A stretch of 55,453 nucleotides of DNA from Chlamydiia bacterium (GCA_038257035.1 JBBSJT010000003.1:1-55453), one strand, 5' to 3'. Shown: positions 5,759-54,780, counted from the first letter of the stretch. Notes: generated by a model from the sequence alone, not told the origin. Translations and numbers: made by a program.

Positions 5759-5968
5759 CGTACATATAATGGTACTTCTGGAAAATAAAAACTTGCAATC
5801 GCTGCGCGGCACGATAAGCAGGATAATATCAACCTTCAGTAATTCAGGAGGTAGATATTATCCTGCTTATCGTGCCGCGCAGCGATCGTGCATATCCTGT
5901 AAAAAATATTAGTGGATTGATCATTTGAGACCGGAATGTTTTTGACTTTCCAGTAGCACCAGTATACG
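5759..5968. repeat. Nested palindromic element: CAGGAT-family core inside an outer imperfect IR
   Basis: Perfect 33-bp IR 5798-5830 / 5854-5886; outer IR TATAATGGTACTTCTGGAAA (5765-5784) vs TTTCCAGTAGCACCAGTATA (5947-5966), 17/20 match. Confidence 0.85.
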
Positions 5969-5994
5969 ATTCTAATTTTGAAGAACCTTATGCA

Positions 5995-6753
5995 TTATTC
6001 TGTAAGCTTGAGCCAATAGGTCTGCATTTCAGGGTTGAGGTAATGGGTTAGCTTATAATAGGGAAGGGGCCAAAAACCATGATACTCAAGATCTACCAAC
6101 GCAAGTCTGCCATCTCGTGCAAAAGGCAAATTGTGGGCAACAAGGGAATCAATAAGACCTTCACGTTCCATTAGAGTCCGAACGGCATGGAGAAGTTTTG
6201 GTGTGGCTGCCGTCCTCCAAAGTCTGCGGCTAACCTTTTTTTCTTCAAGTTGTAGGTCTGTTGCTACAAGTATAAAATGTTTTGGATAGGGACCTTTTGA
6301 AGCAGGGTTTTCAGGAATAAGATAGATCCATTTTTTAGCGACTTTGAAATATTTGGCAAAATTAAGTTCATCAATTGCTTTTTTAACGGAGCGAGCAGCA
6401 GAAGCTCTTTTAACCCATTGTTCCGATTCAATATCAATTTGCTGTTCATCGCTATAAAATTTAAAAAAATAATCTTTTAATTTTTTATGTTTAGTGATTA
6501 TAGCATGGCTATAAAGGCCTTGCTTAGCAGTTAGAAATCCTGCTTCAATGATGTTCTGATCATTTTCGGTGACTCGACGATGCGTAAAAATACGATCCAA
6601 CTTTTTTTTTAGAGGATGATCCATAGGCATAAGATAAGGCAATACATTTTTCCATTCTTCATCCGATACAGATTCAGGTTTAACATATCCAAAACATAAG
6701 GATAATTGAATAATGCATGTTAAAAAAATGAGTGAAAAAAATTTTTTGTTCAA
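5995..6753 (-). CDS. Exported protein, possible protein-kinase-like fold
   Basis: Signal peptide (MNKKFFSLIFLTCIIQLSLCFG); YFFKFY, DSLVAHNL and GRLALVDLE resemble the kinase VAIK, catalytic-loop and DFG elements. Confidence 0.65.
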   Translation of the reverse strand: MNKKFFSLIFLTCIIQLSLCFGYVKPESVSDEEWKNVLPYLMPMDHPLKKKLDRIFTHRRVTENDQNIIEAGFLTAKQGLYSHAIITKHKKLKDYFFKFYSDEQQIDIESEQWVKRASAARSVKKAIDELNFAKYFKVAKKWIYLIPENPASKGPYPKHFILVATDLQLEEKKVSRRLWRTAATPKLLHAVRTLMEREGLIDSLVAHNLPFARDGRLALVDLEYHGFWPLPYYKLTHYLNPEMQTYWLKLTE

Positions 6754-6765
6754 GTCCTTACCACC

Positions 6766-6954
6766 CTATTTTTTAAATGCGAGTATTGCAAGCCTAACAA
6801 TTACGTAAGAGACCCATCCTAAAAGAGCTGTTAGGAGGCTTGCAAAAACACTGCTTAAAAACTCAACTGAATTGTAATAGATGATAATAAAACTGATGAT
6901 GAATAGAGCAATTGTAAAAATTAAACCGTTTTTCTCAATTAATGGATGACCCAT
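6766..6954 (-). CDS. Small two-TM membrane protein
   Basis: 62 aa, two hydrophobic helices, GAGG RBS, operon-like spacing with both neighbours. Confidence 0.7.
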   Translation of the reverse strand: MGHPLIEKNGLIFTIALFIISFIIIYYNSVEFLSSVFASLLTALLGWVSYVIVRLAILAFKK

Positions 6955-6961
6955 TTATACC

Positions 6962-7435
6962 TCATTTATTTTTTTTTTTAGATTTACCAAGCATTTCAAA
7001 AATGTAATCGATAGAAAATTTTCCAGGCCCAAAAATCAAAATGATTAAAGAGGCTATTAAGTAGGTGAAAGGTGATTCTTTCAAGATTCCAGAAGGCGAA
7101 TCTAGAAAAGCCTTAATTGGTTCAAAATGCGCCGTTACAAATGCTACGATCATGGCAAAAATTAGTGGCAAAGATATTAACCGAGACAAAAATCCAAGAA
7201 TAAAGAAAGCACCTCCAATGATTTCAGTCCAGATAAGGAGGTGTGCATTTAATTCGGGAAATGGAATTCCAAGTTCATTAATGAAATTAGTTGTTCCTGC
7301 AATGTCGTAAAGTTTTTTTAGTCCGGCCTGTAAAAATAAATAGCCCCAAAAAAGCCTTACCACAAGTAAAAAAGGGGATTGCAACCATTCTCCAAAGTTG
7401 ATTAAGGAAATGTACATTTTTTTAAAACCATCCAT
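6962..7435 (-). CDS. DoxX family membrane protein
   Basis: LLVVRLFWGYLFLQAGLKKL, EIIGG..GFLSRL and GPGKFSID motifs. Confidence 0.9.
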   Translation of the reverse strand: MDGFKKMYISLINFGEWLQSPFLLVVRLFWGYLFLQAGLKKLYDIAGTTNFINELGIPFPELNAHLLIWTEIIGGAFFILGFLSRLISLPLIFAMIVAFVTAHFEPIKAFLDSPSGILKESPFTYLIASLIILIFGPGKFSIDYIFEMLGKSKKKNK

Positions 7436-7498
7436 CTTGTAAACCCTTTTTTTTAATTAATAACCGATAGATAGTTTATGAAATAAAAAATAGCAAGC

Positions 7499-52714: not shown

Positions 52715-52716
52715 AG

Positions 52717-53538
52717 CTAAACTCCTAAATGGTCAAGGGTGTAAGTGCTTTTTCTTTTTCCAATAAATAAAATTGCAAGGACAAATAGAGCTTGAAAGGC
52801 ATTGAAATATTTAAGGTTCAATCCCATTTTTAAAAGGATTTGCTGCATCAGGAAATATCCAATAACGCCCAAAATAGGTACGATCAAATTTGGATGATCT
52901 CCCTTTTTTAGAAGCTTACCAATCATGAGGGAAGTTAAACAGAGCATGATAATGCCAAAATTCATGGTAAAATCAACCACTCCACTAGTCAGTGAAAATA
53001 AGAATCCACTTAAACCTGCAAGCCCATGTCCACATACCACCCCACAAAAAAGGACAAATTTTTTTGAGATTTGATGATTATCAAAAAAATGTGGATTGTT
53101 ACCATATATTGCAAAACAATAACCCATTTCCGATCTTAAAAGAATAAAAATAATTGTGACAATTAATGCTAGCAAAGTAAGCAATAAAGTTAGTTCACTT
53201 ATGGCAGAAGCAATGCTAAACCCATTAACAGAACCTTTTAAAAGAAAAAGGGTTAATCCATGGATAAGTCCGTTGGTGACAATTGCAGATAGAAGGTAAG
53301 GAATTTTTAAAATTTGATTTAAAGAAAAAACAATCATGCCAACAGACATTCCACCTACAATTGAACATATAACCACTATTGGAAGGGGCATATCTTTTGC
53401 TAAATAGGCAAAGACCGCCCCAAATAAATAGGCGCTTTCAATGCTAAAATCAGGCAATTTTAAAAGAGATAATGTAATATAGGCCCCAAAAATTAATGGA
53501 AGGGCGATGAGTGATTGCTCAAATATTGAATAAATCAT
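52717..53538 (-). CDS. ABC transporter permease (putative aromatic amino acid/tryptophan)
   Basis: GAYITLSLLKLPDFSIESAYLFGA motif, multiple TM helices, LAGLSGFL. Confidence 0.85.
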   Translation of the reverse strand: MIYSIFEQSLIALPLIFGAYITLSLLKLPDFSIESAYLFGAVFAYLAKDMPLPIVVICSIVGGMSVGMIVFSLNQILKIPYLLSAIVTNGLIHGLTLFLLKGSVNGFSIASAISELTLLLTLLALIVTIIFILLRSEMGYCFAIYGNNPHFFDNHQISKKFVLFCGVVCGHGLAGLSGFLFSLTSGVVDFTMNFGIIMLCLTSLMIGKLLKKGDHPNLIVPILGVIGYFLMQQILLKMGLNLKYFNAFQALFVLAILFIGKRKSTYTLDHLGV

Positions 53539-54431
53539 GGCTGCACCAATCCTTGTTTTGCTGCAGCTTCATGATTAAACTTCAATTTAAAATTGCTAAC
53601 CGGTGTGATGGGGATGTTACCCGGATTAATTCCTTTTTCAAGTATTTGAATGGCTTTGAGTGCAGCCTCAACCCCAAAATCATATTCATAAACTCCATAA
53701 CCACAACCGGCTCCGCGATCAGGCGAATCTAAGTCACTTGCCATTAAAAGAATTTGTTTTTCATTGCATAGTTTGCTAAGAATTTCGATTCCTGAGACTA
53801 GTGTATTGTCTTTTAAAATAAGAACTGCATCCATGCCATCCATGAATGGGGAAACTTTTGATTTAATCTCGTTTGTCTGAAAGACTTCTACCACTTGAAG
53901 TGAAATGTTCCTGTTTTTTAAAATGCTACTGATTTCTTCATGATCCTTTTTAAGACCGGGTTCTGCAGGATTATAAACAAGGAGAAGTTTTGAAAGGTTG
54001 GGTTTTAAGGAAATGAGAGCATTAATTTCTTCATCAAGTTTCAAGATCTCTTTAACACCGGTGACATTGTTTCCTACAAAATCTTCTGTCATATTAACTG
54101 CAGTAAATACGATAGGAGTACTCATTCCTTTTTTTAAGAAAACTTGCGTTGCTATCTCTGTGGTTGATGTGCCGATAGTTAAAAGAAGATCAAAGTTACC
54201 CTTGTAAATTTCTTCAACTTCTGAGCGCATAAGGGTTTTATTTCCTTGTGCATTGTAGGTGACAAATTCATACAAATTTGATTCTTTTTCAATTGTCTCA
54301 ATAAAGCCTTTTTCGATTTTTTCCAAACTTACATGAGATGCCGGCGTTAGTATGGCTATTCGTTTTTTCTTTTCGGACGTGCTGCATGCTGTTAAAAGCA
54401 GTAGCAATAAACCCATCATTAAAGTTTTCAT
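53535..54431 (-). CDS. ABC transporter substrate-binding lipoprotein (ABC_sub_bind/TrpX-like)
   Basis: Lipobox LTAC; SHVSLEKIEKGF, NAQGN, PIVFTAV, VTGV, YNPAEP and DNT motifs. Confidence 0.87.
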   Translation of the reverse strand: MKTLMMGLLLLLLTACSTSEKKKRIAILTPASHVSLEKIEKGFIETIEKESNLYEFVTYNAQGNKTLMRSEVEEIYKGNFDLLLTIGTSTTEIATQVFLKKGMSTPIVFTAVNMTEDFVGNNVTGVKEILKLDEEINALISLKPNLSKLLLVYNPAEPGLKKDHEEISSILKNRNISLQVVEVFQTNEIKSKVSPFMDGMDAVLILKDNTLVSGIEILSKLCNEKQILLMASDLDSPDRGAGCGYGVYEYDFGVEAALKAIQILEKGINPGNIPITPVSNFKLKFNHEAAAKQGLVQP

Positions 54432-54457
54432 AAGAAACTTCTCCTTTTTATTCTTCC

Positions 54458-54479
54458 TTGTAATGTTACACCATTACAA
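54458..54479. promoter_or_regulatory. Putative TrpR operator overlapping the ABC-importer promoter
   Basis: Palindrome TTGTAATG-TTACAC-CATTACAA; minus-strand promoter TTGTGT (54486-54491)-N17-TAACAT (54463-54468) has its -10 inside the palindrome. Confidence 0.75.
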
Positions 54480-54596
54480 AATTAAACACAAGGTTCTTTT
54501 ACGCTAGGTATAATTTGCTAATTTAAGGTGAGGAAAATTTGTCCTAATTTTCACCCTAAACCGACTTGTCGTAAATACATTAAAATAAGAAAAATA

Positions 54597-54780
54597 TATA
54601 AGGCAGGCCTACAGCCTGCGATCTTAACATACTTATACCTAGGGCGTTGCCCTAGGCTTTTATAAACCAGACCTTCGGTCTGAAAAACGGTTCCTCAGGG
54701 CAAAGCCCTGGTTTATAATAGCCTAGGGCATCGCCCTAGGTATACGTAGTTAAGATTGCAGGCTGTAGGCCTGCCTTATA
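54597..54780. repeat. REPIN-like palindromic element C
   Basis: TATAAGGCAGGCCTACAGCCTGCGATCTTAAC..TATACCTAGGGCGTTGCCCTAGGCT vs ATAGCCTAGGGCATCGCCCTAGGTATA..GTTAAGATTGCAGGCTGTAGGCCTGCCTTATA. Confidence 0.88.

Follow-up and report, generated by a model that had tools for sequence, protein, structure and literature searches.

Transposases of the HUH Y1 family act on hairpins folded in single-stranded DNA (ssDNA) (PMC6006769). In REPtrons, the layout described for the genes of REP-associated tyrosine transposases (RAYTs, or TnpA-REP; PMC6006769, PMC3733652), a single-copy Y1 HUH gene is bracketed by dispersed intergenic hairpin repeats, namely the repetitive extragenic palindromic (REP) sequences, bacterial interspersed mosaic elements (BIMEs) and REP doublets forming hairpins (REPINs) of E. 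coli, Pseudomonas and Stenotrophomonas (PMC3116915, PMC3479197, PMC3733652, PMC6006769). In TIRtrons, a TIRYT-class Y1 gene is accompanied by long, partly self-complementary terminal inverted repeats (TIRs) that form moderately abundant families (Di Nocera et al. 2013, PMC3733652), and in the IS200/IS605 insertion sequences (IS608, ISDra2) and their gene-less derivatives the Y1 HUH enzyme reads subterminal hairpins on ssDNA. By comparison, Table 1 of Quentin 2018 marks the TnpA-Y1 subclass 1.2, found mostly in Cyanobacteria and Bacteroidetes, as 'REP: no' (PMC6006769). Here we describe a REPtron-like system in a Chlamydiia bacterium, seen from a contig of 55,453 nt (GCA_038257035.1 JBBSJT010000003.1:1-55453; hereafter the window, meaning this whole stretch) whose intergenic palindromes carry short hairpins with three-base loops (mini-hairpins). 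These mini-hairpins are probably modules of REP/REPIN-like palindromic families, and four of the palindromes, element B, element C and those at 2782-3006 (family D) and 18071-18148, would each be cognate to one single-copy Y1 gene.

The assembly that holds the window as contig C3 (G000; 2,366,241 bp, 210 contigs, 36% GC) probably derives from an environmental chlamydia. Nearly all intergenic regions of the window longer than about 200 nt contain an imperfect palindrome of 90-250 nt, and 48 inverted-repeat pairs are listed in it. These palindromes sort into multi-copy families: full copies (at least 150 nt, genome-wide) number 6 for B and 21 for C, family A-type queries give 125-233 BLAST hits over 59-81 contigs, and family D gives 48 hits over 23 contigs. 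Most copies are intergenic, often directly 3′ of stop codons or between convergent genes, and the repeats are probably the reason for the fragmentation of the assembly into 210 contigs. A preliminary description of the window had cited nine stretches as strand-polarised mini-hairpins with GNA loops; all nine read as claimed, on the claimed strand, and lie inside imperfect palindromes.

Element B (Table 1) is tied to a Y1 gene on both sides. Whole B elements flank the intact gene G000:C29:9113-9457, and the flanks are 83-85% identical to B. In the window copy, a compensated G:C / A:T change separates the outer hairpin of one arm from that of the other, and the innermost hairpins are unrelated in sequence between the arms, yet both fold, indicating that the local hairpins are kept and not arm-to-arm pairing alone. 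The outer hairpin loops of the six copies read TCC three times, TCT twice and TTT once on the left, and GGA, AGA (twice), AAA, CGA and GGAT on the right. The GTAG foot is present as TTGTAGCACC in five of the six copies.

Element C shows a similar association, in which the gene stands between two halves of the element. The intact Y1 gene G000:C105:2265-2714 sits between a right-arm half and a left-arm half of C, with flanks 79-85% identical to C. Among the 21 copies, the loop of the right-centre hairpin is AAA in 18 and GAA in 2. The best full-length matches to element C come from assemblies titled Chlamydiae.

These two genes belong to a wider set. Matches to PF01797 (Y1 HUH transposase) fall at nine places, representing seven loci of the genome, where the gene bodies are single-copy (0-2 BLAST hits elsewhere) and both flanks give 10-70 hits. 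Both flanks of the C119 gene (G000:C119:273-704) match the family D repeat (2793-3001), and the flank of the C68 gene matches window 18081-18129. A single-copy Y1 gene between two cognate elements, or between their proximal halves, is the REPtron layout. Because B and C are cognate to HUH Y1 genes, an enzyme family that acts on ssDNA hairpins, the suggestion in the preliminary description of an ssDNA-based recognition or mobilisation step linking the elements gains support for B and C.

At about 150 aa, the proteins of C29 and C105 carry DHVH and YILNQKEHH or YINNQKEHH, hence intact HUH and Y motifs, and they score 108 and 87 bits, respectively, on Pfam Y1_Tnp. The YxxxQxxHH motif is of the TnpA-Y1 subclass 1.2 type and is found at 35 of the 39 Y1 loci examined. 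The nearest solved structure by sequence is 2F4F, a putative IS200-type transposase (E 0.008). Only the C68 protein passes the NCBIfam REP_Tyr_transpos model (85.8 bits; cut-off 80).

Table 1. Palindromic elements of the window and their hairpins (positions counted from the first letter of the window).
Feature	Position	Strand	Description
Element B	22459-22650		192-nt palindrome, three hairpins per arm; arms 22459-22548 / 22561-22650, 80% complementary
B left arm, outer hairpin	22464-22480		GCACCGC-TCC-GCGGTGC with 5′ GTAG foot
B left arm, middle hairpin	22499-22517		CCGGTGGT-TTC-ACCACCGG
B left arm, inner hairpin	22530-22544		CATCAC-TTC-GTGATG
B right arm, inner hairpin	22566-22578		ACCGC-GGA-GCGGT
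B right arm, middle hairpin	22592-22610		CCGGTGGT-GAA-ACCACCGG with 5′ GTAG foot
B right arm, outer hairpin	22629-22645		GCACCAC-GGA-GTGGTGC, then CTAC
Element C	54597-54780		184-nt palindrome, three hairpins per arm; outer arms 54597-54628 / 54749-54780, 97%
Element C, inner arms	54630-54688 / 54690-54748		83% complementary
C left arm, outer hairpin	54603-54619		GCAGGC-CTACA-GCCTGC
C left arm, middle hairpin	54638-54656		CCTAGGGC-GTT-GCCCTAGG
C left arm, inner hairpin	54668-54682		CAGACC-TTC-GGTCTG
C right arm, inner hairpin	54696-54710		CAGGGC-AAA-GCCCTG
C right arm, middle hairpin	54722-54740		CCTAGGGC-ATC-GCCCTAGG
C right arm, outer hairpin	54758-54774		GCAGGC-TGTAG-GCCTGC
Family D palindrome	2782-3006		beyond the range of the preliminary description; GTAG-CCGCGGGT-GTAA-ACCCGCGG hairpins, canonical GTAG feet
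Short palindrome	18071-18148		related to the flank of the sole RAYT-class gene, G000:C68
Family A copy (A1 type)	5798-5886		CGC-TGC-GCG in left arm, CGC-GCA-GCG (5876-5884) in right arm
Family A copy (A2)	48244-48382		CGC-GAA-GCG 48336-48344, CGC-GTA-GC 48352-48359; at centre of J / J′
Family A copy (A3)	49659-49837		tandem ATCCTGC + CGC-GNA-GCG; CGC-GAA-GCG 49774-49782, CGC-GTA-GCG 49790-49798
Family E palindrome	7495-7790		arms of GAAGAAGCGC-type units; GCGAAGC 7691-7697
Element J	48133-48176	+	AACACCGAGACCACAGAGGAGCAA...; inverted partner 48448-48491; further copy 22364-22410

The middle hairpin of element C extends the association beyond this genome. Hairpins of the form CCTAGGGC-NNN-GCCCTAGGCT occur at more than 118 loci in other genomes, from Verrucomicrobiota, Planctomycetota, Chlamydiota, Acidobacteriota, Bacteroidota, Thiotrichales and others. 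Of 142 matches, 74 have the loop GTT and 28 the loop GAT. The C105-type gene is present in 13 of 15 tested hairpin-bearing genomes versus 19 of 200 sampled genomes of the window's phylum. In assemblies of Pirellulales, Paludibacteraceae and Akkermansiaceae, hairpin loci found by pattern alone bracket a Y1 gene by coordinates. Conversely, CCYAGGGC hairpins are present at all seven chlamydial loci of closer C105 homologues (54-73% identity). Most of these seven loci add a GCAGSC hairpin (CTACA/TGTAG or TTC/GAA loop) and a third hairpin (CTTCA/TGAAG or TTC/GAA), and most carry purine-type loops on one side of the gene and pyrimidine-type loops on the other. Among further Y1 loci from other phyla, 8 of 10 have a CCYAGGGC-type hairpin within 450 nt. 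The hairpin thus flanks homologous Y1 genes in at least seven phyla, with compensated stem changes (CCTAGGGC, CCCAGGGC, CCTATGGC and CCTGGGGC), and hairpin-flanked members of subclass 1.2 were found in Chlamydiota, Planctomycetota, Verrucomicrobiota, Acidobacteriota, Bacteroidota, Sumerlaeota and Thiotrichales.

Covariation supports the hairpins themselves. Aligned over 12 rows, the three-hairpin module shows complete (100%) pairing in hairpins 1 and 2. Each of the two has a swap, G:C to C:G or U:A to C:G, and none of 500 shuffles reached the covariation score. The second hairpin, downstream of the conserved one, has the loop TTC in 38 and CTTCA in 12 of 122 cases, across 53 different stems. 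The compensatory stem change with a kept loop that the preliminary description had proposed to look for was seen in these 50 of 122 cases. One locus in a Parachlamydiaceae assembly (L127, G002:C7:26966-30415) has its Y1 gene between two mirrored arrays of about ten 64-nt units, each unit being a CAGGCT-GAA-AGCCTG and CCTATGGC-AAC-GCCATAGG pair; as the arrays mirror one another, this gene lies in the loop of a palindrome of more than 1 kb.

Our comparison with the known systems reveals both likeness and difference. The window and its genome share with REPtrons the single-copy Y1 HUH gene bracketed by dispersed intergenic hairpin repeats, several gene-repeat pairs per genome with a repeat for each, inverted doublets foldable into one long hairpin, and GTAG feet in B and D; the tetranucleotide GT[AG]G as a foot on the 5′ side of the hairpin is present in B and D and absent in C and family A. 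The enzymes beside B and C differ in that they are not RAYTs (class 2) but IS200-like members of subclass 1.2, each arm holds three unlike hairpins in alternating orientation instead of one REP, family C has no GTAG foot, and the cognate hairpin is near-invariant across phyla, whereas REPs are described as species-specific (PMC6006769). The proteins resemble TnpA-Y1 subclass 1.2 as described in the same survey in length (about 148-150 aa), in DH[IV]H, WQ and YxxxQxxHH, in low copy number and in the presence of divergent paralogues; unlike in that description, conserved hairpins, themselves dispersed repeats, flank the members found here. With IS200/IS605 elements they share the Y1 HUH enzyme, subterminal hairpins read on ssDNA and the NCBIfam placement, but gene and flanks are not repeated as one unit, so that this is not a multi-copy insertion sequence, and the flanks are mutually inverted rather than on one strand. 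Similarly, TIRtrons also combine a Y1 gene with long, partly self-complementary inverted repeats that are moderately abundant families; their TIRs share GGGGWSAS or are mutually unrelated (PMC3733652), whereas the arms here are defined triloop hairpins common across phyla.

Several observations weigh against this reading. The C29 and C105 proteins are filed by NCBIfam as IS200/IS605 (NF033573; 87.3 and 62.6 bits, cut-off 55) and reach only 29 and 24 bits on REP_Tyr_transpos, against the cut-off of 80. Of the seven Y1 loci, C119, C7 and C25 are broken and C48 has a degenerate HUH motif. Family C lacks the GTAG foot, and not every gene has its hairpins in mirrored orientation, the arrangement being reversed or direct in L128, L148, L174 and L175. 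Family A, the main carrier of CGC-GNA-GCG, adjoins no Y1 gene in G000, and in a genome from a different family of the order (G085) its 47 modules all lie more than 2 kb from the 6 Y1 genes. In the most frequent hairpin, CCTAGGGC-NNN-GCCCTAGG, 0 of 127 copies have a GNA/TNC loop, AAA, AGA and AAC loops are common, and the hairpin counts were taken from related loci and are not independent. No excision or insertion event was seen over 44000-55453 in the public runs X1-X3, whose contigs break at repeats; their joints link different copies or swap central spacers, and none removes an element cleanly. No empty site was found in relatives, which are too diverged: although B copies exist in the same-genus genome G007, flanking genes there share only 66-67% identity and lack collinearity, so that no orthologous empty site is available for B.

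The three broken loci (G000:C119:273-704, C7:10515-10945 and C25:9991-10421) carry an in-frame TGA, a TAG or frame shifts, the in-frame TGA being that of C119. The flanking repeat families of all three persist in the genome.

By analogy with IS608 TnpA and E. coli TnpA-REP (PMC6006769), the Y1 enzyme would bind the hairpins on ssDNA, most likely on the lagging-strand template at the replication fork, and would cut and rejoin beside them, allowing palindromes without a gene to spread. Compact C:G-closed triloops may let each arm fold by itself into small DNA hairpins that resist the single-stranded DNA-binding protein (SSB), before or instead of pairing between the arms. GNA and GNNA loops, over-represented among such triloops, would then offer the enzyme a structured target; their possible role as very compact caps poorly bound by SSB is drawn from the literature on DNA mini-hairpins (PMC13037366). 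Nesting of elements at palindrome centres is an indirect sign of insertion. More broadly, and tentatively, the subclass-1.2 Y1 enzymes may be those of a widespread multi-phylum REPtron class whose grammar is one of compact triloops, with a near-invariant CCYAGGGC-GWT-GCCCTRGG hairpin and a GAA/GTA hairpin of free stem, with GNA/GNNA as a general mark of Y1 ssDNA targets and with spread by insertion at the single-stranded apex of palindromes.

For family A, no enzyme partner was found. Its arms are 92-97% complementary in the window copies, and it has no GTAG foot. Between the ATCCTGC units, the module (n = 119) reads CGCGAAGCG in 29 cases, CGCGCAGCG in 25, CGCTTTAGCG in 18 and CGCGTAGCG in 14. 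The middle base of CGC-GNA-GCG is A in 34, C in 29, T in 17 and G in 1, while the remaining eight positions are conserved in 72-77 of the 81. Among 45 aligned copies of the A1 subtype the non-consensus fraction is 0.5-0.6 at the middle base of the loop and 0-0.1 at its neighbours, the N columns varying like the central spacer. The left arm of A3 holds CGC-TAC-GCG and a non-mirrored CGC-TAAA-GCG. The module TGCCGCGNAGCGATC occurs 71 times in G000, 43 times in G085, not at all in G007 and no more than twice in any of the remaining 198 sampled genomes, a patchy spread that suggests horizontal transfer. In a metagenome scan for the family A arm, 119 of 120 loci were single chance matches in GC-rich DNA (median 63% GC), and L293 was the only true A-like element.

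We consider it unlikely that family A and the palindromes with tandem-unit arms (E, F, G, H and K) constitute a separate system, with another transposase or as duplex binding-site arrays (of GCAGGAT units, for example), in which CGC-GNA-GCG is incidental or serves another purpose. Such a system would fit the flanks of the seven Y1 genes, none of which matches families A, E, F, G, H, I or K, as well as the distance of the A modules from the Y1 genes of G085 and the distribution of the module between genera and families, which is compatible with independent horizontal spread. It would also fit the minimum-energy fold, in which the 3-bp stems are part of a long duplex, and a G085 locus at which A arms enclose hicA/hicB and not a transposase. 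On the other hand, the freedom of N in CGC-GNA-GCG while G, A and the stem are kept, together with insertion variants that are mostly GNNA, follows the rule of DNA mini-hairpins (PMC13037366), and hairpins with the same core, ATCGC-GTA/GCA/GAA-GCGAT, flank a Y1 gene in G085. C copies nested at the apex of family A point to an insertion habit common with the Y1-linked family, and, with many of the 210 contigs ending in A copies, a partner gene could be unassembled. As for a miniature inverted-repeat transposable element of a DDE transposase, no autonomous family A element was found in G000, where two long-spaced motif pairs are ordinary genes, and the AT-rich DNA on either side of C shows no readable target-site duplication; no search aimed at DDE families was made. 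In sum for the ssDNA-based step that had been proposed to link both element classes, B and C stand as cognate to Y1 genes, and the link to the tandem-repeat families is unproven, with no Y1 neighbour in G000 or G085.

Element C is nested in a GCGCATACGCATTAAGCTAAG-type palindrome, itself within family A, at G000:C58:7270-7640, C4:14400-14900 and C46:4900-5280. In the window, A2 and the J / J′ pair share a midpoint (about 48312-48313), J and J′ (37 hits over 27 contigs) forming the outer shell around A2. This shell-like nesting fits insertion at palindrome centres. At the G085 locus mentioned above (L170, G085:C1:212600-213800), family A arms at about 240-290 and 960-1000 enclose a hicA/hicB toxin-antitoxin cassette (Pfam HicA_toxin E 4e-9, HicB E 2e-20), indicating that the arms can bracket cargo.

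The GNA loops resemble the DNA mini-hairpins d(GCGNAGC) and d(GCGNNAGC) (PMC13037366, PMC3201870) in the C:G-closed G-N-A, the free middle base and the GNNA variants. A C:G-closed G-N-A with a free middle base is met in family A and in only part of the B and C hairpins; many hairpins here have other loops, and some GAA or GTA loops are closed by T.G or T:A instead of C:G. The natural uses of such mini-hairpins lie in ssDNA settings, such as phage origins and the promoter hairpins of phage N4 (5-bp stem, GGA/GAA loops), and SSB binds them poorly (PMC13037366). Perfect hairpins with stems of at least 5 bp were counted genome-wide and compared with 10 third-order Markov genomes. The expected enrichment of GNA triloops was borne out: C..G-closed GNA/TNC triloops number 133 versus 40.2 expected (3.3x), compared with 604 versus 411.8 (1.47x) for C..G-closed triloops with other loops and 59 versus 45.6 (1.29x) for G..C-closed GNA/TNC triloops. 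Among 240 CGCNNNGCG words, 87 have GNA and 78 TNC loops, that is 165 (69%) versus 12.5% under uniform loops, and nearly all of these 165 lie inside family A. A few repeat families supply most of the GNA excess, so that these counts are not independent. The claim that the GNA loop recurs across the elements holds insofar as the C:G-closed excess is real, and fails insofar as GNA is not their common denominator, the best-conserved Y1-linked hairpin having GTT/GAT loops.

It is quite unlikely that this excess is a by-product of a few amplified founders, of loop-directed mutation or of purine-rich loops, with no selection for the stability of DNA mini-hairpins. A by-product would agree with the handful of families that supply most cases, with the many AAA, AGA, AAC and GTT loops, with the drift of one hairpin's loops among GGA, AGA and AAA, and with the complementarity of family A N variants between arms (20 of 26 versus 8.1 expected), which fits a few amplified sub-lineages. 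However, about half of the GC-rich repeated stem types are GNA-dominated despite unrelated stems (GGTCC 17/21, GTGGT 14/16, GGTCT 11/14, GAAGC 9/13, ACCGC 9/12, AGACC 8/9, ATCAC 7/7 and GCCAC 6/6); AGGGC (113 copies), GCGAC, ACCAC and GTAAC are not. Around 33 Y1 genes, GNA/TNC loops make up 30 of 74 distinct triloops and GNNA/TNNC loops 15 of 44 tetraloops, against a uniform 12.5%, and at least one such loop recurs at 22 of the 33 loci from many genomes; since the 33 loci are mutually related, binomial P values would overstate the case. Furthermore, TTC/GAA is kept over the 53 stems of the second hairpin, and the excess belongs specifically to triloops closed by C..G, the closing pair on which the stable DNA form depends (PMC3201870). 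In G000 itself, the CCTAGGGC-NNN-GCCCTAGG loops are AAC/GTT (33 + 33) and GAT/ATC (17 + 17).

The strand polarity of the loops does not identify a working strand. The preliminary description had noted GNA on the minus strand in left arms and on the plus strand in right arms; TNC stands in the 5′ arm and GNA in the 3′ arm because the arms are reverse complements, and the pattern, being the same on both strands, leaves no working strand readable. The totals are symmetric (GNA 87 versus TNC 78; GGA 16 versus TCC 16), which rules out a net strand bias. The orientation itself is fixed: two-armed family A clusters are TNC-then-GNA in 30 of 30 and never the reverse, and B and C are built likewise. 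In minimum-energy folds, stems of 2-3 bp (GC-GAA-GC at 7691-7697 and the CGC-GNA-GCG of family A) are absorbed into the long arm-to-arm hairpin, and those at the apex of B and C are the sole mini-hairpins predicted to fold separately; B and C appear as a long stem capped by two small hairpins. The inverted terminal repeats of parvoviruses such as adeno-associated virus are likewise long palindromes whose apex carries two small hairpins with three-base loops, T-shaped and cut by the HUH protein Rep. The likeness to the minimum-energy folds of B and C is one of shape only and implies no relationship by sequence or evolution; B and C are repeats within a chromosome, not the ends of a genome. Whole elements form long hairpins of equal energy on both strands, with DNA and RNA parameters alike, and single mini-hairpins have equal nearest-neighbour energies for the GNA and TNC strands, with no GNA bonus in either model; folding models therefore cannot tell DNA from RNA, nor the GNA from the TNC strand.

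That the elements act as RNA, in the form of terminators, stabilisers of mRNA 3′ ends or small RNAs, with the Y1 genes as bystanders, would suit their intergenic position after stop codons or between convergent genes, their equally good folding with RNA parameters and the effects of REPs elsewhere on mRNA stability and termination (PMC3733652), but is highly improbable, given that no Rfam family reaches the gathering score in the window, that in family A, on either strand, TTTTTT precedes the hairpin and AAAAAA follows it, opposite to the order in an intrinsic terminator, that symmetric elements have no favoured transcribed strand, that GNA/GNNA mini-hairpins are much less stable as RNA than as DNA (PMC13037366), and that Y1 genes of different phyla are bracketed by the same hairpins, an arrangement that an RNA role leaves unexplained. 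Two specific RNA readings were rejected. A C(UUCG)G tetraloop in CAGACCTTCGGTCTG requires a register that breaks the stem, and intrinsic terminators are ruled out by the T-run of family A on the wrong side, the lack of a T-run in B and the presence of only TTTATAAT in C.

REPtrons and TIRtrons are already known; what seems new is the link of subclass 1.2 to dispersed hairpin repeats, the three-hairpin arm and the near-invariant cognate hairpin across phyla. In the literature on RAYTs or REPINs searched with chlamydial names, no paper treating such repeats in environmental chlamydiae was found, and our reading of the palindromes as REPIN-like would place selfish DNA of this kind in these organisms. 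It would also give a function-level lead for a Y1 subclass listed without repeats in the reference survey (PMC6006769), whose supplements may list flanking structures. Across phyla the pairing of enzyme and hairpin persists even as protein identity drops to 36-55%, which makes it convenient for studying the reading of hairpin DNA by HUH enzymes, and the C:G-closed GNA DNA mini-hairpin, an unusual physical motif, would be linked to a concrete enzyme family.

Other features of the window are more peripheral. The GCGAAGC of family E at 7691-7697 has a stem of only 2 bp and is a weak case of a mini-hairpin. More palindromes with arms of short tandem units lie at 9605-9769, 42222-42337, 14846-15027, 44630-44865 and 51483-51691; their units include AAAGGACN, GACACGAA (five times) with GCGCAAAG (three times), and CGTGCC (four to five times), and each of the five has tens of hits in the genome, none matching any Y1 gene flank. 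Element J starts within about 20 nt 3′ of the stop codons of two unrelated genes (22364-22410 and 48133-48176). Eight large reading frames of 634-1011 aa (window 19327-22362, 27902-29806 and 30615-44572) have no NCBIfam match at E 1e-10, and the recognisable genes of the window include potA, pepA and menD.

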